This document shows, one piece after another, positions 31,652 to 56,330 of a DNA stretch of 64,000 bases. Positions within the stretch are counted from its first letter, which is position 1, and each line of letters begins with the position of its first letter. The position numbers were made by a program, and so were the translations under genes. The stretch spans positions 64,001-128,000 of the forward strand of contig CAVOXA010000014.1 of NCBI GenBank assembly GCA_963700285.1, written 5' to 3'. The notes under the pieces are model-generated. The model was not told the DNA's origin. It did not search any database and was given only the letters and a program-made list of their open reading frames with translations. Origin of the DNA: an uncultured Chloroflexia bacterium (lineage in GTDB: Bacteria > Chloroflexota > Anaerolineae > JAAYZQ01).

Positions 31652-31706
31652 TATGTTCGTAATCAAACACAGAAGAGTTGACAAACGTACAAATCTGTGT
31701 CATAAT
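31652..31706 (+). promoter_or_regulatory. Sigma70 promoter of the sugar cluster with an adjacent GlpR/DeoR-like operator
   Basis: TTGACA (31678)-N17-CATAAT (31701); imperfect palindrome TATGTTCGTAATCAAACAC just upstream of the -35. Confidence 0.7.
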
Positions 31707-31740
31707 GAGCTACCTTTCACAACTGGCAGCGAGGAGAGGC

Positions 31741-32532
31741 ATGAATAACGTCACTGTCGACCTCAAAGGAAAAGTCACCTTTATCACCGGCGCCGGGAGC
31801 GGTATCGGTCGTGGTCTAGCCCTACAGTTCGCCAGGGACGGCTCGGCAGTTGCCGTAACGGATCTGGACGGCGATGCGGCCGCTGCCGTCGCGACCGAGA
31901 TCCAGGCGGCGGGGGGCAAGAGCCTATCCCTCCCTGTGGACGTTGCAGACCACCAGGCAGTCGAATCTGCTTTGGACCAAACCCTCTCTTGTTTTGGCCA
32001 CATCGATATCCTATTTGCCAACGCTGGCATCCTCGGCCCTGTAGATCTTGCGGATACCACTGCGCGCGACTGGGATCGAGTGCTCGCCGTCAACCTCCAG
32101 GGTGTCATCCATGCCTGCCAGGCTGCGGCGCCGCCAATGATGGCCCGCCGACAGGGACGCATTCTGATCACATCCTCCGTAAACGCTGTGCGGGCTGGCG
32201 CCCACGTCATCCCCTACCGGGTGAGCAAGGCTGCCCTGCTTATGTACACCCGCTGCCTGTCCCTTGCCGTGGCGCCCTATGGCATTACAGTGAACGCGCT
32301 TTGCCCCAACGTCGTCCCGACGCCCATCCAGTTGAACTATGTCACTGAAAAGGTAGTTGAGCAAGGCATCTCCGCCGAAGACTATCTGTCGGACCGAGCC
32401 AAGCGCATTCCCATGCAGCAGCTGACCCAGGTTGAGGACGTCATCGCCCTGGCCCGGTTTCTGGTGTCTGATGGCGCACGGCTGATCACAGGACAGGCCA
32501 TTGGCCCCGATGGAGGGAGCATGGCGGAGTAG
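31741..32532 (+). CDS. SDR family NAD(P)-dependent oxidoreductase
   Basis: TGAGSGIG, NAG, catalytic YRVSK; AGGAG SD before ATG 31741. Confidence 0.92.
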   Translation: MNNVTVDLKGKVTFITGAGSGIGRGLALQFARDGSAVAVTDLDGDAAAAVATEIQAAGGKSLSLPVDVADHQAVESALDQTLSCFGHIDILFANAGILGPVDLADTTARDWDRVLAVNLQGVIHACQAAAPPMMARRQGRILITSSVNAVRAGAHVIPYRVSKAALLMYTRCLSLAVAPYGITVNALCPNVVPTPIQLNYVTEKVVEQGISAEDYLSDRAKRIPMQQLTQVEDVIALARFLVSDGARLITGQAIGPDGGSMAE

Positions 32533-32583
32533 CTATGAGTGAATTGGGTTCCGAAATACTCAACAATCGATGGAAGAAGAACC

Positions 32584-33708
32584 GTGAAGAGCTGTAGCCA
32601 CCGTGAGCGTGTCATCGCGGCTTTCAGCCATGAGGAACCGGACCGCATCCCGCTGGACCTGATGGGCAATGCCGGCGGGCTGGTGGATGCCACCTATTTC
32701 CGCTTGCGCGACCACCTCGGCCTGTCGCCCATTCCCCCCATCCGCTCGGGCAGCACGGTCAACTACTACGACGAGCGCATCCTCGAGCACCTCGACATTG
32801 ACTTTCGCCGCATCTTTCTCAATCGGAACCCGGGCGCCATCCAAGAGCACGACGATGGCACCTTTTGCGACGTGTGGGGCATGACCTACCAGAAGGCAGG
32901 CTTGTTTGTCAACGTCAATAGCAATCCACTTAACCGCATAACGACCGTTGACGAGATCGAAGCCCATGCCTGGCCCACAGCCGAAGAAATGTTTAACACC
33001 GACGGCCTAGCCGAAGATGCGAGGCAGCGGTACAACGAGACGGACCATGCCCTCGTCGCCCGCAATCCACTGACCTACGGTTTTCTCGACCGCTCCTGCC
33101 AGCTCATGGAGATGTCCGAGTTTATGATGGCCATGCTCCTCTACCCCGACGTGGCCCAGGCGATGATCGACCGCATCCTGGCCATTTACAAGGACGTGTA
33201 CACCTTGTTCCTCGACGCCGTGGGACCCTATGTGCAGATGGTAGAAATCGGTGACGACCTGGGCACCCAGGACAGCCTGCTCATCTCACCCAAGATGTAC
33301 CGCAAGTTCATCAAGCCGGCCCAGCAGGAGTTGTACGACTTGATCCACGAAAAGGCACCGGGAGCCGCCCTCTTTCACCATACCGACGGCGCCATGTTCC
33401 GCCTGCTGCCGGACCTGATCGAGGCCGGGGTGAACGTCCTGAACCCGGTCCAGACCTCGGCGGCCGGCATGGAGGCCCGCGGTCTCAAGGAGGCATTCGG
33501 AAATCAACTAGTCTTCCACGGCGCCATCGAGCATTTTGAGGGTGACATCGATCTGGAAACCGTGGTTGCCGAGGTCAAGGACCGCATCGATGCCCTGGCG
33601 CCCGGCGGTGGTTATGTTCTGGCGCCCTGCAATCACATGATCGACGTGCGTCCGGAAGTGGTTTTGGCCATTTATGAAACCGCCCGCGAGCACGGGCGGT
33701 ACCGCTAG
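32584..33708 (+). CDS. Uroporphyrinogen decarboxylase / MtaA-CmuA family protein (paralogue 1)
   Basis: RERV..EPDRIP, GDDLGTQ, HHTDG, LNPVQ, GGGYVLAPCNH; start uncertain (32539 or GTG 32584). Confidence 0.88.
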   Translation: MKSCSHRERVIAAFSHEEPDRIPLDLMGNAGGLVDATYFRLRDHLGLSPIPPIRSGSTVNYYDERILEHLDIDFRRIFLNRNPGAIQEHDDGTFCDVWGMTYQKAGLFVNVNSNPLNRITTVDEIEAHAWPTAEEMFNTDGLAEDARQRYNETDHALVARNPLTYGFLDRSCQLMEMSEFMMAMLLYPDVAQAMIDRILAIYKDVYTLFLDAVGPYVQMVEIGDDLGTQDSLLISPKMYRKFIKPAQQELYDLIHEKAPGAALFHHTDGAMFRLLPDLIEAGVNVLNPVQTSAAGMEARGLKEAFGNQLVFHGAIEHFEGDIDLETVVAEVKDRIDALAPGGGYVLAPCNHMIDVRPEVVLAIYETAREHGRYR

Positions 33709-33728
33709 CTATCAGCTCGGGAGAGACC

Positions 33729-34907
33729 ATGCCTACGTTCAGTCATCGAGAGCGAGTCATCGCCGCGCTCAACCACCAAGAGCCTGACCGGATACCGATC
33801 GATCTGATGGGCCACGCCACCATGCTCCTGGATGAAAGCTACCTGCAACTGCGTGATTACCTGGGCCTTTCGCCCATCCCGCCCATCCGCTCTGGCACCA
33901 GTGCCAACTATTACGACGAGCGTATTCTTGAACGCTTTGACATCGACTACAGGCGCCTATTCCTCAAGACCCGTCCCGAAGCGGCCATTGTGAACCACGC
34001 TGATGGCTCCTTCACCGATGTGTGGGGCATTCGCAGCCGAAAGGCGGGCCTGTACGTCAACGTCATCGAGTATCCCTTGACTGGGGCCACTACGGCGGCC
34101 GACCTCGGGACCTACGACTGGCCGGCACCGGAGCGCATGTTCTCAGCCGAGGGGCTGGCCGAAGAGGCGCAGCAGATGTATGAAGAGACAGACTATGCCC
34201 TGGTCGCCCGCAATCCCCTGAGTTTCGGCTTTCGCGAACGGGCCTGTATGTTGATGGAGATGTCGGATTTTATGGTCGCCCTGGCCCTCTACCCTGACAT
34301 GGCAGCGAGTATCATTGCCCACTTGCTCGAAATCTACAAGGGAGTCTATGGCATGTTCCTGGACGCCGTGGGCCCCTACGTCCACGTGGTAGAGGTAGGC
34401 GATGATCTGGGTTCCCAGGAAAGCTTGCTCATGTCGCCCAAGATGTGGCGAAAGTTCTTCAAGTCAGCCGAAAAACAGCTGTATGACCTAATCCACAAGA
34501 AAGCGCCCCAGGCAGCCCTGGTCCGTCACTCCGACGGCGCCTACTTTGCCCTGATCCCGGACCTCATCGAGATTGGCGTTGACGTACTGAACCCCATCCA
34601 GACATCGGCCACGGGCATGGGTGCTCAGCGTCTCAAGGATACCTTTGGCGACCAGCTGGCCTTTCACGGCGGCATGGAGTTCATTGAGGGCGACGTGGGC
34701 GTTGATGACGTCATCGCCGAAGTCAAGGAGCGGATTGACGTGCTGGCCCCTGGCGGCGGCTATATATTGGCCTCCTGCAATCACATGATCGATGTCAAAC
34801 CCGAGAATATCGTCGCCATGTTCGATATCGCGCGCGAGTACGGGCGATATGGATCTATAGCCGCCAGCAAGGACACGCGAACAGAAGTGGAGGGTGAGAA
34901 CGCATGA
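33729..34907 (+). CDS. UROD / MtaA-CmuA family protein (paralogue 2)
   Basis: RERV..EPDRIP, GDDLGSQ, RHSDG, LNPIQ, GGGYILASCNH. Confidence 0.88.
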   Translation: MPTFSHRERVIAALNHQEPDRIPIDLMGHATMLLDESYLQLRDYLGLSPIPPIRSGTSANYYDERILERFDIDYRRLFLKTRPEAAIVNHADGSFTDVWGIRSRKAGLYVNVIEYPLTGATTAADLGTYDWPAPERMFSAEGLAEEAQQMYEETDYALVARNPLSFGFRERACMLMEMSDFMVALALYPDMAASIIAHLLEIYKGVYGMFLDAVGPYVHVVEVGDDLGSQESLLMSPKMWRKFFKSAEKQLYDLIHKKAPQAALVRHSDGAYFALIPDLIEIGVDVLNPIQTSATGMGAQRLKDTFGDQLAFHGGMEFIEGDVGVDDVIAEVKERIDVLAPGGGYILASCNHMIDVKPENIVAMFDIAREYGRYGSIAASKDTRTEVEGENA

Positions 34908-36427
34908 CAGGTACTACCACTGCCAAACCCAGAGTCGGCCTGGTGAGCTTTACCGACGGCCGCGACAGTTTTTTTGACCAGCCTCGCGAGGATTACTTGC
35001 GGGAGAAGCACCGCGAACTGATCGAGTTCCTGGAGGCGGAAGGCTGCGAAGTAGTCAACCCCATGGCCAGCCTCCGCAGAAACACCACCGATTGGTTCGG
35101 CGTGCGCCGCTACGACGAGGCTGCCTACTGCGCCCGCCACATGGTATCCGAAGGCGCAGAGTGCATGATCCTCTGCTCGCACTTCTGGACGCCGCCGATG
35201 CTCATGATTGACGTGGTGCGCGAGGCCAGTGTGCCCACCCTGCTGTACACAGTCGATGATCCCAACCTGCCGGGCACGGTCAGCATTAGCGCCTGCGGCG
35301 CCAGTCTGCTCGAGTCCGGCGTCAACCGCCACGCCGTGCAGCATGAGCGAATGAAGGGCAACCCAGCGCTGATGTTGCCCTGGATCCGCGGCACCTCCGC
35401 CGTAGCCAAAATGCGCAAAAGCGCGGTGATGCTGTGGGGCGGTTCCTACGCGTTGCATATGGAGCACCTGCAGGACGACATCCCAGCCCTGAAGCGATTC
35501 ATGATCCGCGACGTACTAAACGAGGGCGAATACGCCCTCATCCGCCGCGCCGAGAAGATCATGACCGAGCAACCAGAGCGCATCGACCATTTTCTACGGT
35601 GGCTCAAGGATAACGGCGCCCGGGTCGTTTATGATGATGTCAGCGCCACGCCGCACAACGTTCGTATCCAGGTCGGCTACTATTTGGGCGCCCGCGACCG
35701 TTTGCAGGAACTGGAGGGCGAGAGGATCGTGGGAGTGTCGGTACGCTGCCAACCGACACTCTCAGAAGAGTATGGCGTCGTAGGCTGCACCCTGCCCGCC
35801 TTTTTGCCCTTTGGCGCCGATGACTTGGGGCCAAAGCCCATTGTCCCCACCGTGTGCGAGGGCGACGTGAAAGGGCTGCTGACATCGGTCCTGCTCAGCC
35901 AGATCCGGCCTGACGTTGGCCCCATCTTTGGCGACCTGAAGTACGTGGGCGAGGACTTTTTCGCCATCTCGAACTGCGGTGCTGCCTCGGTCTGGTGGGC
36001 GGGCAAGAGCAACGACCCGGCCACTTCGCTGCCCGAGGTGACGGTACAGGCCAACGTTGATGGCTTTACGGGCGCCGCAGTCGGCTACCTGGGCAAGGGC
36101 GGCCCGGTGACGACGGCCCGCCTGTGCCGCGTCAAAGGTCACTACTTCCTGCATATGGCCCTGGGCGAGAGCGTGCCCCTGGAGGGCGATGTCAAGGATA
36201 AGGTCCTGGGCTTCTTCGGTGAGATGTGGCCCAACGTCATGGTTCGCCTGGGCAGCGATCCCGACCTGCTATTCCGCGTCGCAGCCTCCAACCACCCGGT
36301 GGCCACCGACGGCGATCTGTCGCAAGAGATCGCCTACGCCTGCCGCCAGCTGGACATCCCCATTGTGCGCCTCGACTCAAACGACTCGATGCGCGAGTAC
36401 CTGGATAAGGTGGGGCAGATTCGCTGA
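34904..36427 (+). CDS. L-fucose/L-arabinose isomerase family protein
   Basis: VRCQPTL, PTVCEGDVKG, FGDL, SNCGA, VTTARLCR, ASNH. Confidence 0.8.
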   Translation: MTGTTTAKPRVGLVSFTDGRDSFFDQPREDYLREKHRELIEFLEAEGCEVVNPMASLRRNTTDWFGVRRYDEAAYCARHMVSEGAECMILCSHFWTPPMLMIDVVREASVPTLLYTVDDPNLPGTVSISACGASLLESGVNRHAVQHERMKGNPALMLPWIRGTSAVAKMRKSAVMLWGGSYALHMEHLQDDIPALKRFMIRDVLNEGEYALIRRAEKIMTEQPERIDHFLRWLKDNGARVVYDDVSATPHNVRIQVGYYLGARDRLQELEGERIVGVSVRCQPTLSEEYGVVGCTLPAFLPFGADDLGPKPIVPTVCEGDVKGLLTSVLLSQIRPDVGPIFGDLKYVGEDFFAISNCGAASVWWAGKSNDPATSLPEVTVQANVDGFTGAAVGYLGKGGPVTTARLCRVKGHYFLHMALGESVPLEGDVKDKVLGFFGEMWPNVMVRLGSDPDLLFRVAASNHPVATDGDLSQEIAYACRQLDIPIVRLDSNDSMREYLDKVGQIR

Positions 36428-37497
36428 TGACAACCTACCGCAACCACGCGTGCCGTCTAGCGGAATACAGCCTCAATGGCCAGCGCCTGCTCTTTCTGGA
36501 GAACGAGCTACTTCGCATCGGCGTCCTGGTGGACAAGGGGGCTGACATTCTTCAGTTCCTTTTCAAGCCGTCCGACACCGAGTTCATGCTGCACATGCCA
36601 GATGGCATCCGCCCTCCGGCGGTACAAAACAGAGCGTCGGCCTGGGGCTCATTCCTGGACTACTATCCAGGCGGCTGGCAGGAGATCTTGCCCAACGGCG
36701 GGCCGGCCTGCACCTACAAGGGCATCGAGTTCGGTCTGCACGGCGAGATTTCGACGATCCCGTGGGAGCTGCATATCGACCAGGATGACCCGAAAGAGGT
36801 CCTGATCACTCTGACCGGCCGCCCTTTCCGCACACCCTTCCGCCTCGAGCGCCAGATGGCCCTGCGCCAGGGCGAGGCGATCCTGACCATGCGCGAAGAG
36901 CTGACCAACACGGGTGGCGAGGTGATGGACCTTATGTGGGGCCACCACCCTGCTTTCGGCGCCCCCTTCCTGGGGCCCGACTGTATCGTCGACCTGCCAA
37001 CTCCCAAGGGCAAGACTTTGACCCTGGAAACCGTGCCAGGGGCGGCGGGCACTCGCTTGGCCGGTGGCAGCCGCCAGCCCTGGCCCCTGGCCAGCGAAGG
37101 GGATGGTGCCCCCATCGACTTCAGCCGGCCCGATCCCTGCGGCATGGGGCACGAGGACCTAGGCTACGTGGTAGACTTGCCCCAGGGCTGGTACGCCATC
37201 ACCAACCAGTCCAGCCAGGTCGGCTTTGCGCTGACCTGGCCCGTGGACATCCTGCCCTACCTGTGGGTTTGGCGTCAGTTCAACGCCAGCCAGGGCTATC
37301 CCTGGTACGGACGAGCCTATACCATGGCCCTCGAACCGTGGACCAGCTACCCATCGGGTGGACTTCTGGAGGCCATCAGCAATGGCTCCGCGGCGAGGCT
37401 CGAGGCGGGCCAGACCCTTCGAGCGACCCTGCGCGCAATCGCCTATCAAGGTTTGGAGCGCGTGAGCCAGGTAACTCCAGAAGGGCTTGTGACATGA
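36427..37497 (+). CDS. Aldose 1-epimerase-like / DUF4432 family protein
   Basis: YPGGWQEILPN, GLHGEIS, MWGHHPAFG, LPYLWVW, ALEPWTS. Confidence 0.85.
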   Translation: MTTYRNHACRLAEYSLNGQRLLFLENELLRIGVLVDKGADILQFLFKPSDTEFMLHMPDGIRPPAVQNRASAWGSFLDYYPGGWQEILPNGGPACTYKGIEFGLHGEISTIPWELHIDQDDPKEVLITLTGRPFRTPFRLERQMALRQGEAILTMREELTNTGGEVMDLMWGHHPAFGAPFLGPDCIVDLPTPKGKTLTLETVPGAAGTRLAGGSRQPWPLASEGDGAPIDFSRPDPCGMGHEDLGYVVDLPQGWYAITNQSSQVGFALTWPVDILPYLWVWRQFNASQGYPWYGRAYTMALEPWTSYPSGGLLEAISNGSAARLEAGQTLRATLRAIAYQGLERVSQVTPEGLVT

Positions 37498-39212
37498 CCT
37501 CGCGCTGGCAAGCCTACCGCCAAGCGGCCGATGCCATGCCTGAGCAGATGCTGGCCTGGCCCTACCATGGCGCTGGCCTGGAAAGATTAGGCGCCAACGG
37601 CCAGCCAGTACTTGAGCCAGTGCCGGCCTGCGGTCCAGAGGACCTGCTGGTTCGCGTCGACGCCCTGGGTCTGTGCAACTCGGACCTGAAAATGGTCCGC
37701 ATGGGCAGGGAGTATCCCCTATTCTTTGAACGCGACTTTGAACGGAACCCGGGGCGCTTGGGCCACGAGATGGCCGTCACGGTCGTAAAAGCTGGCGAGC
37801 GTTGGCGGGACATGTACCAGCGCGGCCAGCGGCTGGGCATGCAGCCCGATGTGTACCACGGCGGCAAGCGGCTGTGCCTGGGTGTGAACCTGTTGGGCGG
37901 AATGTCCCAGTATGTGACCCTCGGCCCCGAAGTGGTTGAAGGCGACCCCGAAAGCTATCTGTTTCCCGCGCCGCACGAGATGACTTATGTCGACTTGTCG
38001 TTACTGGAACCGTGGGCTTGTGTAGACGCGGCCTACCAACCCCTTCGTCGCCTGGAGCCGAAACCGGGCGGCGTGATGTGGATCAAGGGCCGTCCGGGCA
38101 GTGACCATGCTTTCACCATGAGCTGCCCTCTGACCTGCGCTCGCTTGGTGTTGAGCGACGTGCCCGAAAGCTTTGCGGCGTGGGCACGGACGCAGGCGGT
38201 CGAGATTTGGCAGCGCGACGGCGGCAGCGGCCGGGAGCTAGTCGAGGCTGCAACCGGTGGCGCCGGGTTTGACGACATCATTCTGCTCGATCCACACCAG
38301 GCGTCTATGGTCGAGGCAGCCGTGGAGGTGATGGTACCCTTTGGCTCCCTAAATCTCGTCACCAAACTGCCCCTGGACGGGCCGGTTCCGGTCGACATGG
38401 GTCGCCTGCACTATGAACACCTGGCCTTTGTCGGCTGCCCCGGTCCCGACATCGCACAGGCTTACGGAACCGCCCGCAACCGCTCGGAACTGCGCCCGGG
38501 CGGTGTCACCCTCATCGTAGGCGCCGGTGGCGCCATGGGCCGCATGCACCTTATCCGCACTTTGGAGATGGCAGAGGGGCCGCGGGCGGTCATTGTCACT
38601 AACCGAGGCACGTCCCGCCTGGCCAGCCTGGTCAGGGATTTCGGACCACTGGCCCAGGAGCGAGGCATCGAGCTGGTGGCCGTCAGTCCGACGTCCGAGC
38701 CGGGCCGCTTGGAACGGGAGATCGACCGTTTGAGCAGAGGCCGTGGCTGTGATGACGTCAATGTCATCGTGCCCAATGCCAGGGTCGTTGCCGAGGCGGT
38801 ACCCTACCTGGCTGACGACGGGCTGCTCATCGTCTTTGCCGGCGTCCGCGGTGGTCACAAAGTACCTCTGCCCCTGGATCGGATCGCCCTACATAGCGCC
38901 CAGTTCACCGGCACCAGCGGCTCGTCCATTGAGGACGCCAAGCGGGTGATGGAAAAAGCTCGGACGGGAGCGCTATCACCGTCTCGGGCCATGGCCGCCG
39001 TGGGTGGGCTGAAGGCCATTTCGAAGGGATTGCAGGCCATGATGGACGGGACCTACCCGGGCAAGATCGTCGTCTTTCCCAACCTCATCGACCTGCCCCT
39101 GCTGGGTTTGAGTGAACTGAAGACGGTACATCCTGAGGTCTATGCCCAATTGGGCCCTGGAAAAACATGGTCGGCGGCTGCCGAACAGGCCTTGTTTGAG
39201 GCATACCTATGA
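37494..39212 (+). CDS. Zn-dependent medium-chain alcohol/polyol dehydrogenase (SorE-like, enlarged, 572 aa)
   Basis: GLCNSD, LGHE, LLEPWACV, Rossmann GAGGAMG; ATG overlaps the upstream stop (ATGA). Confidence 0.8.
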   Translation: MTSRWQAYRQAADAMPEQMLAWPYHGAGLERLGANGQPVLEPVPACGPEDLLVRVDALGLCNSDLKMVRMGREYPLFFERDFERNPGRLGHEMAVTVVKAGERWRDMYQRGQRLGMQPDVYHGGKRLCLGVNLLGGMSQYVTLGPEVVEGDPESYLFPAPHEMTYVDLSLLEPWACVDAAYQPLRRLEPKPGGVMWIKGRPGSDHAFTMSCPLTCARLVLSDVPESFAAWARTQAVEIWQRDGGSGRELVEAATGGAGFDDIILLDPHQASMVEAAVEVMVPFGSLNLVTKLPLDGPVPVDMGRLHYEHLAFVGCPGPDIAQAYGTARNRSELRPGGVTLIVGAGGAMGRMHLIRTLEMAEGPRAVIVTNRGTSRLASLVRDFGPLAQERGIELVAVSPTSEPGRLEREIDRLSRGRGCDDVNVIVPNARVVAEAVPYLADDGLLIVFAGVRGGHKVPLPLDRIALHSAQFTGTSGSSIEDAKRVMEKARTGALSPSRAMAAVGGLKAISKGLQAMMDGTYPGKIVVFPNLIDLPLLGLSELKTVHPEVYAQLGPGKTWSAAAEQALFEAYL

Positions 39213-40363
39213 CCACCTTGATGACGCCCAAAGAGCGGATGCTGGCCGCTCTCAACCGGACCGAGCCCGACCGTGTGCCAACAGTCATGTGGGGCAGCTA
39301 CTATACCTTTAACGATGACACCTATTTTCGCCTGCTGGACCATCTGGGCCTGGGTGAGCCTGTGCCACCGTTTCGCCGCCAGCTGCCGCGCAATTCGAAC
39401 TATCTCGACGATCGCGTTCTCGACCGCCTGGAGACCGATGCCCGCTACATCTGGTCGGGCCTGACCGACTTGGGCGGTGCGCGCATGGATGGCGACGGCC
39501 GGGACGCCTGGGGGGTGCAGTGGGCGCGCCAGGGTCCCCACCTGGTAAGCGTCGACTATCCCCTGGCTGGCGCGGGTATGGAGGAGATCGAAAACTACGG
39601 CTGGCCCGACCCGGAGCGGCATCTGGACTATGAGCTGATGGCCGGGCGGCTGGACTATTTGCGGCGGCACTGTCCCGACCATGCCATCGGCGCTCGGGCG
39701 GCCAACTCCTACGGGCCCTTTGAGCAAGCCGCCCAGTTGCGGGGCCGTGTGGACTTTTACATGGACATTGCCGCCGAACCCGAATTGGCCCGGCTGCTGG
39801 TGGACAAATGCGCCGATGTCATCGTTCGCGCTCAGGAGCTGTACCTGGACGTCGTCAGCCAGTACGTCGACTTTTTCGAGATTCCCGGCGACGACTATGG
39901 GGCAAACCAGAACCTCATCATCTCGCCGCGATCCTTCCGCGACCTGATCAAGCCGGCGCTGGCTCGCATTGTGGCCTCGGTCAAGGCCTACCGCGCTGAC
40001 CTGCCGGTGGTCTTTCACACCGACGGCGCCATCGCCAGCATCGTGCCCGACCTGGCCGAGATTGGCATAGACGTCCTGAACCCGCTGGAGCCGCTACCCG
40101 CCACCGATTGGCCGGCCATCAAGACCGACTACGCAGACCGGCTGTGCTTTATGGGCGGGGTGGATGTCACCAAGGCAATGATCGGCAGCGTAGAGGATGT
40201 ACGGTCCGAGGTGAAGCGTTGCATCGAGGTCTTTGGTTCCGGCGGCGGCTACATCTTGACCTCGGCCAACCATTTGCAGCCCGACGTGCCACCGGAGAAT
40301 ATCGTGGCCATGTTTGAGGCTGCTCGCGAGTACGGGCGCTACTATCCCTTTGGTGTGGAATAG
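39209..40363 (+). CDS. UROD / MtaA-CmuA family protein (paralogue 3)
   Basis: MTPKERM..EPDRVP, GDDYG, FHTDG, LNPLE, GGGYILTSANHLQPDVP. Confidence 0.88.
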   Translation: MTTLMTPKERMLAALNRTEPDRVPTVMWGSYYTFNDDTYFRLLDHLGLGEPVPPFRRQLPRNSNYLDDRVLDRLETDARYIWSGLTDLGGARMDGDGRDAWGVQWARQGPHLVSVDYPLAGAGMEEIENYGWPDPERHLDYELMAGRLDYLRRHCPDHAIGARAANSYGPFEQAAQLRGRVDFYMDIAAEPELARLLVDKCADVIVRAQELYLDVVSQYVDFFEIPGDDYGANQNLIISPRSFRDLIKPALARIVASVKAYRADLPVVFHTDGAIASIVPDLAEIGIDVLNPLEPLPATDWPAIKTDYADRLCFMGGVDVTKAMIGSVEDVRSEVKRCIEVFGSGGGYILTSANHLQPDVPPENIVAMFEAAREYGRYYPFGVE

Positions 40364-40376
40364 GGGGGACACTGAC

Positions 40377-41924: not shown

Positions 41925-42066
41925 CAGCCTCCCGGCCCAAACTTGGCGCCAGGAAGCACTCGGAAAGGAGGAAGATGCTGACTAACAGACCGCAACGACT
42001 CTAAGCCGGCACCATTTTCAGACGAGCAGATAATCCGCAAGAAATAAAGAAGGAGGAAAGAAAAAG

Positions 42067-47539: not shown

Positions 47540-47572
47540 AAGGAACCTTGTAGAGGGAGAAAGAGGCGCCCA

Positions 47573-48610: not shown

Positions 48611-48653
48611 AAGAGAAACCAGGTACGGTATTCTTCTTCGAAAGGAACATGGA

Positions 48654-49706
48654 ATGACCAAGATCGCTATCGTTGGCGCCGGCCTGATGGGCACGGCTGT
48701 AGCTTGGCCCCTGTCGGACAACGGACACGAGGTGCGCCTCATCGGCACCCACCTCGACACCGAGATCATCGACAGCTGCCGCGCCGGAGGCTACCATCCG
48801 CGCCTCAAGCGCTACTTGCCGGCCAACGTCACGCCCTTCTACCTTGACAAGATCGAGGAGGCCCTGGATGGCGTCGAGATTGTTGTCAGTGGGGTCAATT
48901 CCCTGGGCGTGCACTGGATCGGGCAGACCCTTGGTCCCCTGCTGCAGCCGGGCCAGCTGGTCATCGCTGTCACTAAGGGTCTGGAGGCCACCGACGACGG
49001 CGAGCTGCTGATCCTGCCCGACGTGGTGGCGGCCGAGTTCCCCGAAAGTATCCGCGACCAGGTAACCATAGCCGCCATCGGCGGGCCGTGCATCGCCGGC
49101 GAGTTGGCCGGGCGCCGGCCCTCTCTGGTCGTCTTTGGCTCGCGCGACTCGGAAGACGTCGAACGACTCGCCGCTACTTTCCGTGCGAGCTACTATCACA
49201 TCTGGACGACCACCGACCTGCTTGGCCTGGAAATCTGCGCTGCCCTCAAGAATGCCTATACCCTGGGCGTAGGCCTGGTGGCCGGCATGTTGGAGCGCGA
49301 TGGCGGCGTGGATCAGGCAGATGCCTACATGCACAACCTGGCGGCTGGCGTCTTTGCCCAGGGCTGCACCGAGATCGACCGTGCCCTGCAGATCCTAGGC
49401 GGCAGCCGCCGTTTCGCGTACGGCCTGCCCGGGCCCGGAGATCTGTATGTGACCAGCATGGGCGGCCGGACCGTTCGTCTGGGGCGCTTACTGGGTCTGG
49501 GTCACTCCTACGCCGAAGCGCGGCAGATCATGGCTGGCGAGACCTTGGAGGCTGTCGAGATTGTGCGGTCCATGGGCAAAACGCTGCCTAGGATGCAGGC
49601 ACAGGGCAACATCAGCGCCGGGGATCTACCACTGCTCCGCGCCCTGGTCGACGTCGTCGTCCACGGCAAAGAGATCGACCTGCCGCTGGACGCCTTCTTT
49701 GGGTAG
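48654..49706 (+). CDS. NAD(P)H-dependent glycerol-3-phosphate dehydrogenase family protein (divergent GpsA-like)
   Basis: IVGAGLMG, VTKG, IGGPCIA.E, ALKNAY, GDLYVT..GRT. Confidence 0.8.
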   Translation: MTKIAIVGAGLMGTAVAWPLSDNGHEVRLIGTHLDTEIIDSCRAGGYHPRLKRYLPANVTPFYLDKIEEALDGVEIVVSGVNSLGVHWIGQTLGPLLQPGQLVIAVTKGLEATDDGELLILPDVVAAEFPESIRDQVTIAAIGGPCIAGELAGRRPSLVVFGSRDSEDVERLAATFRASYYHIWTTTDLLGLEICAALKNAYTLGVGLVAGMLERDGGVDQADAYMHNLAAGVFAQGCTEIDRALQILGGSRRFAYGLPGPGDLYVTSMGGRTVRLGRLLGLGHSYAEARQIMAGETLEAVEIVRSMGKTLPRMQAQGNISAGDLPLLRALVDVVVHGKEIDLPLDAFFG

Positions 49707-49762
49707 TCCAGCATAGCCGGGCACAGCCCGGCGAAACAAGCACTAGGAGATTGAGATAAGCC

Positions 49763-50836
49763 ATGACCGAAATCTTGACTGCTTCCGTTGTCGGCGGCGG
49801 TTGGGGCGGCACCCTGAATATGAGCGGCCTGGCCAACTCGGACCGGTTTGAGCTGGTCGCGGCGACTGATATCAAGCCCGAGGTCTGCCGGGTGTTGGAA
49901 GAACAGTACCCCGGTATCCGGACGTTCACCGACTACCAGGAGATGTTTGCGATTTGCCCGACCGATGTTGTGTGCGTCGCCACCTATGCCCCTAGTCACG
50001 AGGCCATCGCCATCGACGCCCTGGAATTGCCACTGAAGGGCATCTGTGTCGAAAAGCCCCTGGGCGCGTCTGTGGCTGAGGGACAGCGCATTCTAGAAGC
50101 CATCAAGGCCCGCAATCTGCCCATGGCTGTTCCCCATCCCCTGCTGGCCGAAGCGTTGCCCATGGAGATTATCGAGCGCGTCCAGCGCGGTGACATCGGT
50201 ACCCTGCGCCTGGTGGAGGTCGAGCAGAACAAATGGGACTTGCTCAACGCCGGCATCCACTGGCTGAACTTTTTTGTCCACCTGACTGCTTTCGAAGAGA
50301 TAGACTGGATCCTGGCCGCGCTCGACACCAAGGACCGCACCTACCGCGACAGCATGCAGGTGGAGACCTCGGGTGTGACCTATGTCCAGACCAGGAGCGG
50401 CGTCCGCTTTGTAATGCACACCGGCGACCAGGTGTTGGTGACCGAAGAGAGAGGCAGAGAGACCACTTCCCTCTTCCGTCTGGTGGGTACAGAAGGCGTC
50501 ATCACCTTCTTCGGCGTGCATCCTGTCTACAGGATCCTCAATGCCGAGAACCCAACGGGTACCGACATCCGTCCCGAACCTTTTTCCCAGACCGAGCACG
50601 AAATCCACCTGAACCACATGGCTGCTCAGATCGACAATGGGATACCGGACTATACCGTGGCCGATAGCTCTCTCACCGCTCTGGAATGCTGCGAGGCGGC
50701 ATTCCTCTCGCACCGCCACCGCTGCAAGGTCACCTTCCCGCTAAAGGCCTTCAGGCCACCCGCTGACAGCGACTGGGACCCCGGTGCCATCTATGGCGGC
50801 GAGGGTGGCGGTCTCGATGGACGGAGCCTGCTCTGA
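49763..50836 (+). CDS. Gfo/Idh/MocA family oxidoreductase
   Basis: VVGGGWGG, CVEKPL, LLNAGIH, LVGTEG. Confidence 0.88.
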   Translation: MTEILTASVVGGGWGGTLNMSGLANSDRFELVAATDIKPEVCRVLEEQYPGIRTFTDYQEMFAICPTDVVCVATYAPSHEAIAIDALELPLKGICVEKPLGASVAEGQRILEAIKARNLPMAVPHPLLAEALPMEIIERVQRGDIGTLRLVEVEQNKWDLLNAGIHWLNFFVHLTAFEEIDWILAALDTKDRTYRDSMQVETSGVTYVQTRSGVRFVMHTGDQVLVTEERGRETTSLFRLVGTEGVITFFGVHPVYRILNAENPTGTDIRPEPFSQTEHEIHLNHMAAQIDNGIPDYTVADSSLTALECCEAAFLSHRHRCKVTFPLKAFRPPADSDWDPGAIYGGEGGGLDGRSLL

Positions 50837-50899
50837 CCAGTCAGCCCGCTGCTCCAGAAACCGGCAGCATTCAAGCCAGGAAAGGGAGATTTGTGAACC

Positions 50900-51805
50900 A
50901 TGTCAGAATCGCCAACACGCGTCCAACCAGGCCAGATTGCGCCCTACGGTTCCTTGCCGGTGCCCCGGCTGACGCCCGAACTGTTGGGCCTGGTACGGAC
51001 GGGCAAGGTCTACAGCCTTGCTGTTGTATACCATGAAGGCATGCCCTTGCCCGGCGTGTTCGAGCCCTTTAGCCTCACACCCCGGGTCAGGCACGGAGAC
51101 CTGCGGGGCCTCGGTCCTGTGTCGGGCGCGGGAGAGACGATCAAGATGGCAGCCCATACCGGCACGCATATCGACGCCTTGTGTCACATCGGCGAATACC
51201 AGGATGCGGATGGCAACCCCGTGTCAGAGGGCGGCGAGGTACGAATCTATGCCGGGCCGGGCATGACAACTCCCGCCGCCGGCCATGTCAGTTGGCAGGG
51301 TCAGAACCTCAACGATATCGCTGAGATGCCGCCCGTTGTCGCCCGCGGGATCATGCTCGACGTACCCGGCTACCTTGGCATCGAGGTCCTGCCTGAGGGC
51401 TACACCATCAGCCGCGAGGATGTGGAGGGAACCCTGGTCAAACAGGGAATCGAGATGGCGCCCGGCACCGCCGTCCTGGTACGCACCGGCTACAGCCGCT
51501 ATTGGCCCAACAACAGTACGGTCTACCTGGATGCCGTGGCGGGCATCGGCCTGGAGGCCAACAAGATGCTGGTCGAGGGAGGGATGATCCTCATCGGCGC
51601 TGACAACTCGACCGTCGAGCCCTGGCCGCCATACGACCACGATGTCCATCGCTACAACCAGGTACACCACGGCATCAGCCACCTAGAGGTGATGTACCTC
51701 GATGAGTTGGCGGCCGATCAAGTCTACGAGTTTCTCCTGATCGTCACGCCGCTACGCATCCAGGGCGCCACCGGTTCGTGGGTGCATCCCATCGCCATTG
51801 CCTGA
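50900..51805 (+). CDS. Cyclase family (kynurenine formamidase-like) metal-dependent hydrolase
   Basis: HTGTHIDALCH, VLVRTG, IGADN..VE, PLRIQGATGS.V.PIAI. Confidence 0.88.
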   Translation: MSESPTRVQPGQIAPYGSLPVPRLTPELLGLVRTGKVYSLAVVYHEGMPLPGVFEPFSLTPRVRHGDLRGLGPVSGAGETIKMAAHTGTHIDALCHIGEYQDADGNPVSEGGEVRIYAGPGMTTPAAGHVSWQGQNLNDIAEMPPVVARGIMLDVPGYLGIEVLPEGYTISREDVEGTLVKQGIEMAPGTAVLVRTGYSRYWPNNSTVYLDAVAGIGLEANKMLVEGGMILIGADNSTVEPWPPYDHDVHRYNQVHHGISHLEVMYLDELAADQVYEFLLIVTPLRIQGATGSWVHPIAIA

Positions 51806-51882
51806 GCTTCGGCTCACAGGCAGGCGCCCTGAGGATGCCCGCGAGCAGCCCTGGTTGAAGCACATTGCCTTGGAGGAAATCC

Positions 51883-53043
51883 GTGCCCGATCTAACCCCT
51901 AGACAGAGGGTCCTTGCCGCCCTAGACCACCATCCCACCGACATGGTGCCTTTGGATTTGGGTGGCACCAAGACAACCAGTCTCAACATTCATGCCCAGG
52001 AAGCACTCTTGACCCACTTGGGCATGCATGAACCAACCCTGTGGGGTAGTTATCTCAGCCAACGCACCCACATGCCAGAGGCGCTGTCGCGCTTGCTCGG
52101 CTCGGACGTGCGGCGGGTGCAAGTCCCCCAGACTAGACTGCCCGAGGAATACACCAACCCGGTGCAGGTGGACCTGTGGGGCATCGAATGGACGCAGGAC
52201 CCCACCGGGCTCTTTCACGTCAGCCGGCCACCTCTGGCTGGAGCCGAGGGAGCAGAGAGCCTGAGGCGTTACGCTTGGCCCAGCCCAGAGAGCCTGGAAC
52301 CGGTGGACGAGCTGGCCGCGGCGGCCCGAGAACTCCGGGTCAAGACCGACTGTGCCGTCTGTCTCGATCTGCCCGACCTGGTGGTCCACACCTCTCAGAA
52401 TATGCGCGGCTATCAAGCCTGGTTGATGGACACAGCCACCAACGCGGTGTTCTTGGAGAGCTTGATGGACAAGATCGCCGATATCTATGTGGCCATGGTG
52501 ACGTACCTCCTGGCCGCCGTTGGCGATAGCATCGACCTGGTGATGGTCTGCGACGACATCGCCGTTCAGCGCGGCCCCCTGATACGGCCTGAGGTCTACC
52601 GCAGTCTCATCAAGCCTCGCCAGGCGCGCATCCTGGCCGCCATCCGGTCCAGCACGAAGGCCAAGATCGTCTTTCACACCTGTGGCTCGGTCTATTGGGC
52701 GCTGGGTGACCTGGTGGACCTCGGGATTGATGGCCTGAATCCTGTGCAGACGGCCGCCGCCGAGATGGATCCGGTGAGGCTCAAGCGCGAGGTTGGCGAC
52801 GAGATCTGCTTCTGGGGTGGCATCGACACCCAGCACATCCTGCCCTTTGGCAACCCAGAAGAGGTCCGCGCAGAAGTCCGGCGCATGATTGAGGCCCTGG
52901 CCGCCGATGGCACCGGGTATGTGCTCGGCCCGGTCCACATCGTACAGGCAGAGGTTCCGCCACAGAATATCCTGGCCATGGCCGAAGCAGGCCACCACTA
53001 CGGTGCACGCCAGATGAATCGCGGGCTCGCAGCTCACGGTTGA
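51883..53043 (+). CDS. UROD / MtaA-CmuA family protein (paralogue 5)
   Basis: LTPRQRV, CDDIA, FHTCG, LNPVQ, FWGGIDTQ, GYVLGPVHIVQ. Confidence 0.88.
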   Translation: MPDLTPRQRVLAALDHHPTDMVPLDLGGTKTTSLNIHAQEALLTHLGMHEPTLWGSYLSQRTHMPEALSRLLGSDVRRVQVPQTRLPEEYTNPVQVDLWGIEWTQDPTGLFHVSRPPLAGAEGAESLRRYAWPSPESLEPVDELAAAARELRVKTDCAVCLDLPDLVVHTSQNMRGYQAWLMDTATNAVFLESLMDKIADIYVAMVTYLLAAVGDSIDLVMVCDDIAVQRGPLIRPEVYRSLIKPRQARILAAIRSSTKAKIVFHTCGSVYWALGDLVDLGIDGLNPVQTAAAEMDPVRLKREVGDEICFWGGIDTQHILPFGNPEEVRAEVRRMIEALAADGTGYVLGPVHIVQAEVPPQNILAMAEAGHHYGARQMNRGLAAHG

Positions 53044-53074
53044 GAGCATTGACGTCGGAAAGGAGATCGGGACC

Positions 53075-54229
53075 ATGGCCAAGATGACATCGAGAGAGCG
53101 CGTGCTGGCCAGCCTAAACCACCAGGAGCCGGATCGGGTCCCTCTGGACATCGGCGGCGGTATCAGTACGAGCGTTGTGGTTGAGGGCTATGACCAGCTC
53201 AAAGACCACCTGGGCATACCGGGCGAGACACGGGAGATGAGCAAGGCCTTCCGCGTGGCCTGGGTGGATGAGGCGGTGAGGCGGCACCTGGGCGCCGACC
53301 TCTATCCTCTCCTGATCAGGCCTCCAGCCAATTGGACACCGCCGCCCAGCGAACCGGGGACCATGATCGACGATTGGGATGTCAAATGGAAGCGGACACC
53401 CTACGGCGACAATTGCTACTATTGGGAAATGGTCAGCCATCCTCTGGCTGAGGCCACCGTCGAGGACCTGGAAACCTTTCCCTGGCCCGACCCCTGGGAT
53501 CCCGGACTAACCGCTGGCCTGGAGGACGAGGTCAAGGCCCTTTACGAGGACACCGACTATGCCATCATGGCGGATGCCCGCTTCAAAAGCTTCTGGGAGC
53601 TGGGCTATATGCTGCGGGGCATCGAGCAGATGTACATGGACCTGCTCCTGAATCCCGAGTTCGTGACGGCTTTGATGGACAGACTACTGGCACTCAACAT
53701 TGTCGTCACCGGACGCTTTCTCGACATTGCCGGCCCTTACATCCAGGTCTTTCGCACCACCGACGATATGGCCACCCAGCAGCGGTTGATGATGAAGCCC
53801 GAAACCTACCGCCGCCTGCTCAAGCCCTACTATCGCAAGTATATCGACTTTGTCAAGTCCAAAACCGAGGCCAAGATCTTTTACCACAGCTGCGGCAACA
53901 TCGTCGACATCATCGATGACCTCGCCGAAATCGGCGTCGACGCCATCAACCCGGTCCAGGTCTCGGCCATGGCCGACACCGCAGGGCTCAAGGCTCGCTT
54001 TGGGCACAAAATGAGCTTCTGGGGCGCCATCGACTCACAGCGGGTACTGCCCTTTGGCAGCGTTGAGGATGTGGAAGCCGAAGTCCGGCGGAGAATCAGG
54101 GATCTGGCGCCCGGCGGCGGCTATGTGGTCGCCGGTGTACACACCATCCAACCCGACGTGCCGCCCCAGAACATCGTTGCCATGGCCGGGGCGGTACGCA
54201 AGTGGGGTACTTATCCACTGGCTGTTTGA
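53075..54229 (+). CDS. UROD / MtaA-CmuA family protein (paralogue 6)
   Basis: MTSRERV..EPDRVP, TDDMATQ, YHSCG, INPVQ, GGGYVVAGVHTIQPDVP. Confidence 0.88.
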   Translation: MAKMTSRERVLASLNHQEPDRVPLDIGGGISTSVVVEGYDQLKDHLGIPGETREMSKAFRVAWVDEAVRRHLGADLYPLLIRPPANWTPPPSEPGTMIDDWDVKWKRTPYGDNCYYWEMVSHPLAEATVEDLETFPWPDPWDPGLTAGLEDEVKALYEDTDYAIMADARFKSFWELGYMLRGIEQMYMDLLLNPEFVTALMDRLLALNIVVTGRFLDIAGPYIQVFRTTDDMATQQRLMMKPETYRRLLKPYYRKYIDFVKSKTEAKIFYHSCGNIVDIIDDLAEIGVDAINPVQVSAMADTAGLKARFGHKMSFWGAIDSQRVLPFGSVEDVEAEVRRRIRDLAPGGGYVVAGVHTIQPDVPPQNIVAMAGAVRKWGTYPLAV

Positions 54230-54376
54230 CATGCGGCGGAGCTCGGACCCTGAACAGAAGCATCGTCCAGCGGTATCGCGACACCATCTTCCAGAGCCGT
54301 TGGTTTCGACCGACCGGCCTTGCCCGATGCACCACTGCGAGTACAATAACAAGCGCCTCCAGCAGGGGAGAGATCC

Positions 54377-55222
54377 ATGAAACTGAAACGACATCAGCGC
54401 CAGGCCAGGATTCTTGAAAATCTGCGCCAGCGAGGCTATGTGGCGGTCGACGACTTGAGCCAGTCGTTGGACGTCTCGGCCATGACCATCCGCCGCGACT
54501 TGGACCAGCTCCAGGAGCTCGGTCTTGTCTCTCGCCACTATGGCGGCGCGACATTGCCAGCGGATCTGAATTCGGCTCTGGAGGGCAACCGTCACGCCAG
54601 CAGCCTGGAAATGCGCGAAGGGGCCAGCCTGGATCTGGAGCGGGGCAGCATCGAGTGGCCGTGGCGCATCCGCCAGAGCATCCATGCTGAAGAAAAGAAA
54701 AAGATCGGCAAGCGGGCTGCCGAGTTGGTACAAGACGAGCAAGTGATCGTCATTGACGCCGGAACGACGACCTACGAGCTAGCCAAGAACATCGCCGACA
54801 AGCACTTGACGGTCATCTGCAACTTTTTGCCGATCCTCTGCCTATTGTCCAGCCAGCGCAACATCAACCTCATCGGTGTTGGCGGCCACCTCGAGTGGGA
54901 CAACCAATGGTTCACCGGCTCAGAAGTAATTCCCACCCTACAAGCCATGAACGCCAACGTCGCCATCATGGCCACTTCCTGCCTGTCGCTCAGCAAGGGG
55001 CTGACCAATCGCCTACAGCCTGATTCCCAGATTAAGCGGGCGATGGTCGACATCGCTGAGAAGGTGATCCTAGTGGCGGACAGTTCAAAGATGCATCTGA
55101 GCACGCTGGCTTCGGTCGGTCCCGTTGAGCTGGTGGATACCTTTGTCACCGACCCCGGGCTCAAAAATGAGGATAGGCAAGCACTCGAGCAACGCGGCGT
55201 TGAGGTAATCATTGCCGAGTAG
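54377..55222 (+). CDS. DeoR/GlpR family transcriptional regulator
   Basis: VSAMTIRRDL..L.SRHYGGA, IDAGTTT, LVADSSK. Confidence 0.93.
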   Translation: MKLKRHQRQARILENLRQRGYVAVDDLSQSLDVSAMTIRRDLDQLQELGLVSRHYGGATLPADLNSALEGNRHASSLEMREGASLDLERGSIEWPWRIRQSIHAEEKKKIGKRAAELVQDEQVIVIDAGTTTYELAKNIADKHLTVICNFLPILCLLSSQRNINLIGVGGHLEWDNQWFTGSEVIPTLQAMNANVAIMATSCLSLSKGLTNRLQPDSQIKRAMVDIAEKVILVADSSKMHLSTLASVGPVELVDTFVTDPGLKNEDRQALEQRGVEVIIAE

Positions 55223-55286
55223 ACTGCCCACACACCCACTTTGCGAAGTGTGTTTAGCCCTCATGCACCCAAAGGAGAGAATCGAG

Positions 55287-56330
55287 ATGAACAGCCGAGA
55301 CCGCGTCAAGCGAGCCATCCACTTCCAAAAGCCCGATCAAGCGCCCATTTCTCACGCGGTTCTGCCCGCCGCCCAACTAAAGTACGGCCAGGCGCTGAAC
55401 GAAATCCTGGCCGAGTACCGCGAGGATTTCGGCTGGGACTATATGGAGGACCTGCCCGTCGAAAAGTTCCCAGCACTCTACAAGGAGGGCCGCCACAGCG
55501 ATGACTTTGGCACAGTGTGGCAGGTAGAGTGGATGGGCATCTGCGGCATTCCGGTCGAATGGCCCATTGCCGACCTGGACCGCTACGACGAATACCGGTG
55601 GCCGGCCGGCTTTACAGCCGGACCTCCTTCGGGCCGCCAATACAGCGGCCACATGTGCGGCTTTGACGAACGCTGGTACGCGCGCGGGGCATGGATCACG
55701 TTCTTTGAGCAGCTCCAGCAACTGCGCGGTATGGAAAACCTCATGATTGACATTGCCCAGGAATCGGCGGGCTTCTACCGGCTTCTGGATGACATGCTAG
55801 CCTTCAACCTACGCTGGATTGACAGATGGACGGTGCTCGAGTACGAAGGTCTGCACTTTGCCGACGACTGGGGCGCGCAGCGCCGCCTCTTGATCAAGCC
55901 AGACACCTGGCGGCGCGTATTCAAGCCGCGCTATGCCGAAATGTTCCGCAAGGTGCGTGAGGCCGGCATGGACGTCTGGTACCACAGCGATGGCCACATC
56001 AACGACATCTTGCCCGACCTGATTGAGATCGGTGTGGACGTCATCAACTGCCAGGTGCCCACTATCGGCCACGAATGGCTGGCCCAGAATGCCCGCGGCA
56101 AGGTCGCCTTCCGTACCGATATCGACCGGCAGCAAGTCATGCCCTTTGGCTCACCGGCGGAGGTCAAGGAAGAGGTGCAGCGCGTCTTTGAGGCCTGCGG
56201 CACGCCCGACGGCGGCATCGTCGCCTGCGGCGAGATCAGTCCCGAAGTACCACTGGCAAACATCCATGCCATGTACGAGGCCTTCAGGGAGTATGGGACG
56301 AAGGTAGAAGCTCTTGCCCGGGGAGCGTAG
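55287..56330 (+). CDS. UROD / MtaA-CmuA family protein (paralogue 7)
   Basis: MNSRDRV, LRGMENL, ADDWGAQ, YHSDG, DIDRQ, GGIVACGE; AAAGGAG SD. Confidence 0.88.
   Translation: MNSRDRVKRAIHFQKPDQAPISHAVLPAAQLKYGQALNEILAEYREDFGWDYMEDLPVEKFPALYKEGRHSDDFGTVWQVEWMGICGIPVEWPIADLDRYDEYRWPAGFTAGPPSGRQYSGHMCGFDERWYARGAWITFFEQLQQLRGMENLMIDIAQESAGFYRLLDDMLAFNLRWIDRWTVLEYEGLHFADDWGAQRRLLIKPDTWRRVFKPRYAEMFRKVREAGMDVWYHSDGHINDILPDLIEIGVDVINCQVPTIGHEWLAQNARGKVAFRTDIDRQQVMPFGSPAEVKEEVQRVFEACGTPDGGIVACGEISPEVPLANIHAMYEAFREYGTKVEALARGA

Follow-up and report, generated by a model that had tools for sequence, protein, structure and literature searches.

Seven UroD-superfamily paralogues in a sugar-catabolism cluster of an uncultured Chloroflexota bacterium: candidate corrinoid-dependent demethylases

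The cluster and its genes

We followed up a sequence-only reading of a 64,000-nucleotide stretch of DNA from an uncultured Chloroflexia bacterium (the window; contig CAVOXA010000014.1, assembly GCA_963700285.1), which had drawn attention to a sugar-catabolism cluster with seven paralogues of the uroporphyrinogen decarboxylase (UroD) superfamily, here called U1 to U7. The cluster comprises 19 genes, all on the + strand; it opens with a short-chain dehydrogenase/reductase (SDR) gene at 31741 and closes with the seventh paralogue, whose end is at 56330. Tight packing with overlapping stop and start codons, as first described, was borne out, with five of the 18 gene junctions overlapping (-1 to -14 bp) and the widest gaps measuring 142 and 147 bp. 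One strong promoter had also been claimed, and a near-consensus sigma-70-type promoter does lie at 31678..31706 on the + strand (TTGACA-17-CATAAT with a TG extension, 11/12 consensus; one found versus 0.2 expected in shuffles), and most of the core loci described below show a TTGACA box ahead of their orthologous SDR. However, because the promoter scan covered 31400-32000 only, a single transcript across all 19 genes is something that we infer. Just upstream of the -35 box, an imperfect palindrome (31654..31669, + strand) is a possible operator, which we take to resemble DeoR/GlpR operators; similar elements lie upstream of the SDR in four other loci (L031, L033, L034 and L159). After a response-regulator gene, a 16-bp inverted repeat with a 4-nt loop (31465-31500) could be a terminator or an operator.

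All seven paralogues exceeded the PF01208 cut-off (46.6-118.9 bits versus 23.9), confirming the first count, and share 26-63% pairwise identity. U1 (32584..33708; site residues DD / H-T-D / N-P-V-Q / C-N-H) is of a type conserved in related operons, with orthologues of up to 72% identity in other genomes, and U2 (33729..34907) is its tandem duplicate at 63% identity. U3 (39209..40363; DD / H-T-D / N-P-L-E / A-N-H) has a best fetched relative at 39%, while U4 (47573..48610; DD / H-T-D / D-P-I-D / S-N-S) forms a divergent branch and reaches 102 bits against a cut-off of 235 on TIGR01463. U5 (51883..53043; DD / H-T-C / N-P-V-Q / V-H-I) and U7 (55287..56330; DD / H-S-D / N-C-Q-V / C-G-E) were assigned by PF01208 and alignment. 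U6 (53075..54229; DD / H-S-C / N-P-V-Q / V-H-T) has orthologues at 65-71% in other operons of sugar-acid type, which hold 2-oxoacid dehydrogenase subunits, an SDR and a lactonase.

Pfam agreed with the partner families first named, except that the supposed aldose epimerase is a DUF4432 protein (36427..37497), presumably mutarotase-like, found in part of the related operons (orthologues 67-74%). The SDR (31741..32532; PF13561, orthologues 48-66%) belongs to the conserved core, as does the protein first described as a fucose/arabinose-type isomerase (34904..36427; orthologues 74-77%). This last assignment was upheld when a profile of the family hit L-fucose/D-arabinose isomerase structures (E 8e-32). 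Its Glu319, Asp344 and His464 align with isomerase motifs, C-E-G-D, F-G-D and S-N-H being in register with A-T-E-N-D, F-A-D and A-N-H of 1fui, whose Glu, Asp and His we take to be the metal ligands. A single-sequence search for solved relatives of the isomerase found none; the wider profile did find them. A wide search with the isomerase profile gave 1,852 clusters, a large family, but yielded no gene context.

The other core enzymes are a long medium-chain dehydrogenase/reductase (MDR) of the zinc dehydrogenase type (37494..39212) and an FGGY carbohydrate kinase (40377..41924; orthologues 57-72%). Distant relatives of the MDR (32-40%) adjoin SDRs, both of the two tested exceeding the sorbitol-6-phosphate dehydrogenase cut-off (353 and 333 versus 307). 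Thus, a step from ketose phosphate to polyol phosphate is indicated, and the MDR is likely to be a ketose-phosphate/polyol-phosphate oxidoreductase.

Import would fall to an ATP-binding cassette (ABC) transporter of the CUT2 family, with a sugar-binding lipoprotein (42067..44973) and, by family profiles, an ATPase (45058..46572) and a permease (46559..47539). The lipoprotein has three tandem binding domains that are 96-98% identical. Its orthologues (L028-L054) have one, two or three domains, with copies inside one gene 92-98% alike and mostly closer to each other than across genomes, which suggests repeated duplication or homogenisation. No substrate was named by matches of the binding domain, kinase, SDR or MDR to solved relatives: the binding domain matched ribose-type binding proteins distantly (best E 2e-23), the kinase matched AI-2 and xylulose kinases under the family cut-offs, and the matches of the SDR were generic and those of the MDR weak.

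The remaining genes are a GpsA-like NAD(P) oxidoreductase (48654..49706), below all GpsA cut-offs and not conserved in related operons, whose one close relative among 300 other genomes lies in a non-sugar context; and, by Pfam, a Gfo/Idh/MocA oxidoreductase (49763..50836), a cyclase-family metallo-hydrolase (50900..51805) and a DeoR-family regulator (54377..55222). The window's regulator is a plain DeoR, whereas the divergent regulator of related core loci (L030:5957-7453, L031:7118-8848 and others) is of the DeoR family but carries an inserted periplasmic-binding-type domain. Elsewhere in the window, a MalT-like regulator (17150-19819) is split over several frames, perhaps through an assembly error.

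Linkage to sugar genes in other genomes

A search with U1 gave 3,610 clusters at E 1e-40 among 8,000 scored, mostly labelled Anaerolineae, Caldilineae or Chloroflexota. From a scan of species genomes with a U1 alignment we kept 78 loci of at least 587 confirmed, calling their genes with our own script and taking sugar markers from Pfam scans of cluster representatives, so that the marker list derives from these same loci. A sugar gene lay within 5 kb of 23/29 close relatives (at least 53% identity) and of 16/49 distant ones. In a control within this genome, a sugar marker was near 13/34 other UroD-like loci, versus 232/3,708 background genes (6.3%) and 3/21 MttB loci.

Nine loci (L028, L030, L031, L033, L034, L046, L052, L054 and the spirochaete L036) combine U1 with at least five orthologues of the SDR, isomerase, DUF4432, MDR, FGGY kinase and ABC genes, in the same gene order except in L036. 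The left half of the cluster (SDR, one UroD-like gene, fucose-isomerase-like gene, MDR, FGGY kinase, sugar ABC transporter) therefore recurs in nine other genomes from two phyla. Linkage to sugar genes is thus conserved, which leaves the sequence-only reading unrefuted on this point. Its treatment of all seven paralogues as one pathway found no such support, since each of the nine loci carries one U1-type gene, to which four add a second gene of a different type (His-x-Cys...Cys). Neither the right half nor the set of seven was found elsewhere among the loci searched, and none of the fetched loci held a relative of U3, U4, U5 or U7 above 42% identity. As far as searched, the seven-gene set thus appears to be local.

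The core also occurs without any UroD-like gene. A metagenome scan with an MDR alignment gave 58 loci, of which the best 54 were mapped and four weak ones left out (a single MDR sequence gave none). L159 has SDR, isomerase, a GH38 protein, a second importer, MDR, FGGY kinase and ABC genes, and in L161, L163, L165 and L208 the SDR directly abuts the MDR. The core therefore looks like a sugar route in its own right, with U1 as an optional add-on. About 30 metagenome contigs (L168-L209) carry a class II aldolase, a long MDR and a sorbitol-6-phosphate dehydrogenase, often followed by GH130, and no UroD-like genes.

This bears on whether the cluster is simply a local pile-up with no functional tie to the sugar genes. 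The genome (7.05 Mb, 89% complete, 6.5% contamination) has 52 PF01208 matches, so the cluster belongs to a genome-wide UroD-like expansion, and the right half and four paralogues are without conserved context among the loci fetched. Against a pile-up, U1 is flanked in the nine other genomes by the same SDR and by the isomerase or MDR, overlapping stop and start codons join U2 and U3 to the core, none of the seven frames is broken, and their site residues are conserved; we regard it as highly improbable.

Recurrent neighbours of relatives include GH38 mannosidases, cellobiose-2-epimerase-like proteins, mannitol-1-phosphate dehydrogenase and GH130, a hint of mannose-type hexoses as the substrate class. 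Several neighbourhoods of relatives are observations in their own right. Between SDR and U1, four loci (L028:8670-9959, L029, L030:8719-10014 and L046:8644-9924) hold a 430-residue DUF455/ferritin-like protein assigned to no Pfam family; that it is a di-iron enzyme, an oxygen-using counterpart, is speculation. In L045:4496-11170 a U1 relative stands with a PfkB kinase, ribulose-phosphate epimerase, hexulose-6-phosphate synthase and hexuloisomerase, all above their cut-offs, which may tie this locus to one-carbon handling. In several genomes (L145-L150 and L152), UroD-like genes occur in pairs that alternate with UPF0261 proteins, next to genes for a RuBisCO-like protein, an aldolase and a protein of metallo-beta-lactamase fold. 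In this genome, a sialic-acid-type cluster (G000:C10:440000-460000; L001, L002) combines seven UroD-like genes with NanE, NanA-type aldolases, an N-acylglucosamine epimerase and a BNR-repeat protein, and has no corrinoid gene.

Predicted site and corrinoid partners

Assignment of the paralogues to characterised families of the fold was rejected in each case tried. The sequence-only reading had noted that none shows the HemE MRQAGR signature, and indeed R-x-A-G-R was present in 0/7 and the best score on TIGR01464 was 29.8 bits (cut-off 302.95); no HemE above that cut-off was found anywhere in the genome. The paralogues are not HemE, which leaves the sequence-only reading unrefuted on this point too. 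On TIGR01463, the MtaA/CmuA family, they scored 31.0-102.3 bits against a cut-off of 235.4, and the His-Cys-Cys site is not kept. MetE was excluded by PF01717 (0/7 matches at E 0.001) and by a fold similarity of only Z 14-15. Like type 1 mlp gene clusters, the locus has at least two co-oriented UroD-fold methyltransferase-like genes (seven), but no corrinoid protein or Ram/RACE gene lies within it.

A model of U1 built from 55 sequences was confident (pLDDT 91.5) and gave a UroD-type TIM barrel. The best Foldseek match was MtaA (E 1e-14, TM 0.65; UroD, E 1e-12), and superposition gave Z 25.0 with MtaA and Z 26.0 with UroD (root-mean-square deviation 3.3-3.6 over 312-318 residues, 12-18% identity). 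The MtaA-family structure was PDB 4ay7 (TM 0.65-0.66, Z 25.0 and a deviation of 3.6 over 312 residues). A narrow U1 profile matched no solved structure; a wider one gave matches. Across the U1 family, D224/D225, H266/D268, N287/Q290 and C349/N350 are invariant; they probably line the active site of the model, because each follows a barrel strand. Where MtaA has H-I-C-G and P-G-C-G, five of the seven paralogues have His-x-Asp and two have His-x-Cys; the column of MtaA's last Cys holds Asn, His or Glu, with a Cys in register in 0/7. In U1 and U2 an invariant Cys stands one residue before that column, a register that is unsure by one.

In this superfamily, His-Cys-Cys marks the sulfur and selenium transferases, and O-methyltransferases swap Cys for carboxylates or non-ligands (PMC10418091). 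The predicted site therefore fits an oxygen-linked substrate. CdmB and a Moorella O-demethylase are without zinc (PMC13222342). U1, like the other six paralogues, is likely to be a methyltransferase I.

If so, a corrinoid protein and an activator would be needed. Consistent with the first reading, which had reported neither of these in the window and no heme genes nearby, genome hits by coordinates and Pfam scans of 24 and 19 window ORFs (open reading frames) found no B12-binding, RACo or heme-pathway family there. On its own contig, the cluster is separated from the closest corrinoid genes by about 300 kb, and the RACo genes are on other contigs. The whole-genome search did find the partners elsewhere. 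Among 16 profile matches are 13 stand-alone corrinoid proteins of 150-240 residues. RACo occurs at two loci, as a 548-residue frame beside MttB and corrinoid genes and, split over four frames, in a Wood-Ljungdahl cluster; the genome also encodes ACS, CODH, FTHFS and CdhD, pterin-binding domains (the Wood-Ljungdahl one split) and homocysteine methyltransferase domains. Thus, the parts expected of a three-component corrinoid O-demethylase are present: UroD-superfamily proteins without His-Cys-Cys in the cluster, and a corrinoid protein, an activator and a methyl acceptor transferase in the genome.

One locus of this genome, L011 (G000:C10:1090500-1099750), holds in order a sugar regulator, an SIS isomerase, a UroD-like gene 42% identical to U6, a corrinoid protein, an FGGY kinase and a CUT1 sugar ABC transporter, and a genome from the same genus (G001, L217) retains the operon. 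In our view it is the best candidate place for the cognate corrinoid partner. Two frames downstream look GroEL-like. In a tree of corrinoid proteins three UroD-linked ones group together (100/99); a dedicated clade for these enzymes was unsupported, as the remainder mix with MttB-linked proteins.

Related loci carry similar partners in places. In L068 and L069 a relative 35-36% identical to U1 is surrounded by an SDR, a fucose-isomerase-like gene, a corrinoid protein, RACo, a methyl-folate transferase (above its cut-off in L068) and MTHFR. In L037 (63% to U1) a corrinoid protein, a homocysteine methyltransferase, a MetH reactivation domain and GH38 are present, and in L050 and L056 corrinoid proteins occur with GH32/PfkB or FGGY/mannitol-1-phosphate dehydrogenase. 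The three methionine-synthase parts form a split enzyme with no folate domain beside it in L037:1016-9580 and G070:C33:15737-17712; in L037 it adjoins three UroD-like genes as well as GH38. In a tree of 168 proteins, built without OdmB, VdmB, MtvB, MtoB or CdmB, the corrinoid-neighboured relatives are spread over the branch with U1-U3, U5 and U6, several of them inside the U1/U2 group.

RACo was also present in 29 of the 32 distinct genomes (33 loci) chosen as carriers of U1 relatives; one of the three without it has a corrinoid domain, a homocysteine methyltransferase and a reactivation domain side by side. Using U6 as the query, which also matches other family members, we counted RACo in 128/129 genomes with a match versus 26/72 without in the host's class (201 genomes), and in 58/60 versus 14/101 in the class of G049 (161 genomes). 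Without the 14 ACS genomes the latter comparison is 44/46 versus 14/101, so the Wood-Ljungdahl pathway does not explain the link.

These counts bear on the idea that the paralogues are cobalamin-independent metal enzymes of sugar metabolism, such as decarboxylases or lyases of oxidised sugars, their corrinoid link reflecting a shared anaerobic lifestyle. The cluster's lack of a partner fits this idea, as do the 71/78 related loci without a corrinoid gene, a U1 fold equally near the UroD decarboxylase and MtaA, the three oxidoreductases alongside, and the 2-oxoacid dehydrogenase subunits and lactonases beside U6 orthologues. Set against it, a U6-like gene occurs in just 1/47 and 2/89 RACo-negative genomes of the two classes, also where ACS is absent; the relatives in L068 and L069 adjoin a full set of partners; the core runs without a UroD-like gene; and 29/41 MttB genes of this genome are also without a neighbouring corrinoid gene, so that orphan methyltransferases are usual here, although UroD-like genes are orphans more often. 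We consider such cobalamin-independent enzymes improbable. The sequence-only reading had left a cobalamin-independent reaction and demethylation with a corrinoid protein encoded elsewhere side by side; the former loses ground to the genomic partners, the RACo co-occurrence and the corrinoid operons of relatives. The latter gains from the same evidence, its methylated-sugar substrate apart, and we judge it highly likely that the UroD-like proteins are corrinoid-dependent.

Proposed demethylation and comparison with known systems

With moderate confidence, we propose that the UroD-like proteins are demethylases of methylated sugars that depend on a corrinoid, and that their products enter an ordinary isomerase-kinase-reductase route. 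The importer would take up a neutral monosaccharide or polyol, methylated and unmethylated. A metal held by His and by Asp or Cys, near the invariant Asp-Asp pair and a C-terminal Asn/His, would bind the ether oxygen, and Co(I) on a shared corrinoid protein encoded elsewhere would take the methyl group, with RACo re-reducing oxidised cobalt. Either tetrahydrofolate and the Wood-Ljungdahl enzymes or homocysteine would then receive the methyl group (the corrinoid demethylation scheme is summarised in PMC9768040). The fucose-isomerase-like enzyme would convert the freed sugar from aldose to ketose, which would reach sugar-phosphate metabolism by way of the FGGY kinase, the MDR and the SDR; demethylation could come before or after isomerisation or phosphorylation. 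U1 and its duplicate U2 would be the ancestral add-on to the core, and U3-U7 later local additions widening the range of methylated substrates.

As to the group moved, the residues and neighbours make an O-methyl sugar or polyol a reasonably likely donor. All the corrinoid evidence would fit equally well with transfer of another group (from an N-methyl amino sugar, an S-methyl methylthio-sugar, a methyl ester, released methanol or a larger alkyl), or with some paralogues acting as methyltransferase II acceptors. U5 and U6 retain His-x-Cys, and U6 relatives at 46-48% adjoin RuBisCO-like proteins, some of which act on methylthio-sugar phosphates. Other family genes here lie among amino-sugar, aminotransferase and amidohydrolase genes, the cluster itself holds a cyclase-family hydrolase, and the superfamily contains S-, Se-, O- and halide transferases (PMC10418091, PMC13222342). 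Such substrates fit poorly with a conserved core of neutral-monosaccharide importer, aldose isomerase and kinase, with no deaminase or aminotransferase, and with a carboxylate-rich site in 5/7 paralogues in place of His-Cys-Cys; we think this alternative rather unlikely.

Several observations weigh against demethylation of O-methyl sugars. A corrinoid gene lies within just 7/78 related loci (3/29 close and 4/49 distant), and in this genome within 4 kb of 4/54 family genes versus 12/41 MttB-like genes. In the Wood-Ljungdahl cluster (G000:C22:26200-29000), the genes for RACo and methyl-folate transferase are broken into several frames, perhaps by assembly errors. The co-occurrence counts come from related, non-independent genomes, those negative for U6 being smaller on average. 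No sugar marker lies within 5 kb of 6/29 close and 33/49 distant relatives, some on short contigs, and the range of gene contexts (amino sugars, sulfatases, 2-oxoacid dehydrogenases, RuBisCO-like proteins) is very wide, perhaps wider than O-methyl sugars alone would account for. Compared with an aryl ether, an unactivated sugar ether offers a poorer leaving group. None of the characterised O-demethylases is a close relative, the match to CdmB being weak (E 7e-4 over 80 positions). The proposal rests on gene content, fold, site residues, genomic partners and linkage.

Plant, algal and microbial glycans contain methylated sugars, which are resistant to breakdown (PMC6292453), and anaerobic demethylation of methyl-galactose was described in 2025 as a process that "has not been elucidated yet", its mechanism still undiscovered (PMC12316285). 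In the literature searched, mostly open papers, we found no description of a corrinoid-dependent sugar demethylase, and the networks and trees in the supplements of PMC10418091 and PMC13222342 may already place this branch; the sugar demethylase that we found described is an oxygen-dependent P450 (PMC6292453). We put at about even the broader hypothesis that the missing oxygen-free demethylase of methylated sugars is a large, misannotated UroD branch (DD / His-x-Asp or Cys / N-P-x-Q). Its members would be add-ons to ordinary sugar operons of anaerobes, dozens of them served by a shared corrinoid and activator pool, and this cluster would be a seven-enzyme panel for differently methylated forms of one sugar class. 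If true, thousands of genes labelled uroporphyrinogen decarboxylase would gain a function, and glycan methyl groups would feed acetogenesis and methionine synthesis directly in sediments, digesters and soils. To this question the locus adds a defined, conserved U1 operon that makes it testable, natural versions with and without the gene, and an activator test outside Wood-Ljungdahl genomes.

Of known systems, the L-sorbose route likewise pairs an MDR with a polyol-phosphate SDR, and relatives of the window's MDR adjoin SDRs above the sorbitol-6-phosphate dehydrogenase cut-off. However, sorbitol-6-phosphate dehydrogenase is not among the best 25 families for the window's SDR, and the window uses an ABC importer and a kinase, plus an aldose isomerase. 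We take the proteins of that route to be SorE and SorD, and the MDR to be SorE-like. HemE shares the fold (Z 26.0 for U1), and relatives of the paralogues carry its database name; the paralogues differ in their scores (at most 30 bits versus 303) and in lacking R-x-A-G-R. MtaA/MtbA/MtsA and CmuA (TIGR01463; PDB 4ay7) give the best profile and Foldseek match, with a His at the same strand end, yet U1 is 15-18% identical to them, the scores are 31-102 bits versus 235, His-Cys-Cys is lost and there is no methanogen context here. The type 1 mlp clusters of Kountz and Balskus (PMC10418091) also hold several UroD-fold methyltransferase-like genes per anaerobe cluster, but with their own corrinoid protein and RACE gene, His-Cys-Cys and a role in methyl-Se/S metabolism, none of which is found here. 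The P450 CYP236A, a 6-O-methyl-D-galactose demethylase, does strip an O-methyl group from a sugar, but it needs oxygen, releases formaldehyde and has an unrelated fold (PMC6292453).

The aryl O-demethylase methyltransferases I (OdmB, VdmB, MtvB and MtoB) and the haloalkane transferase CdmB belong to the UroD superfamily (PMC13222342) and share with the present proposal the three-part scheme of corrinoid protein, methyltransferase II and RACE, as well as the loss of His-Cys-Cys (PMC10418091). CdmBC, moreover, is served by an activator encoded away from its cluster (PMC13222342). Unlike the paralogues, whose neighbours are genes of sugar import and catabolism, these enzymes act on aromatic ethers or haloalkanes and normally have their partners in the same cluster. 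By this scheme, U1 to U7 would work like the aryl O-demethylases.

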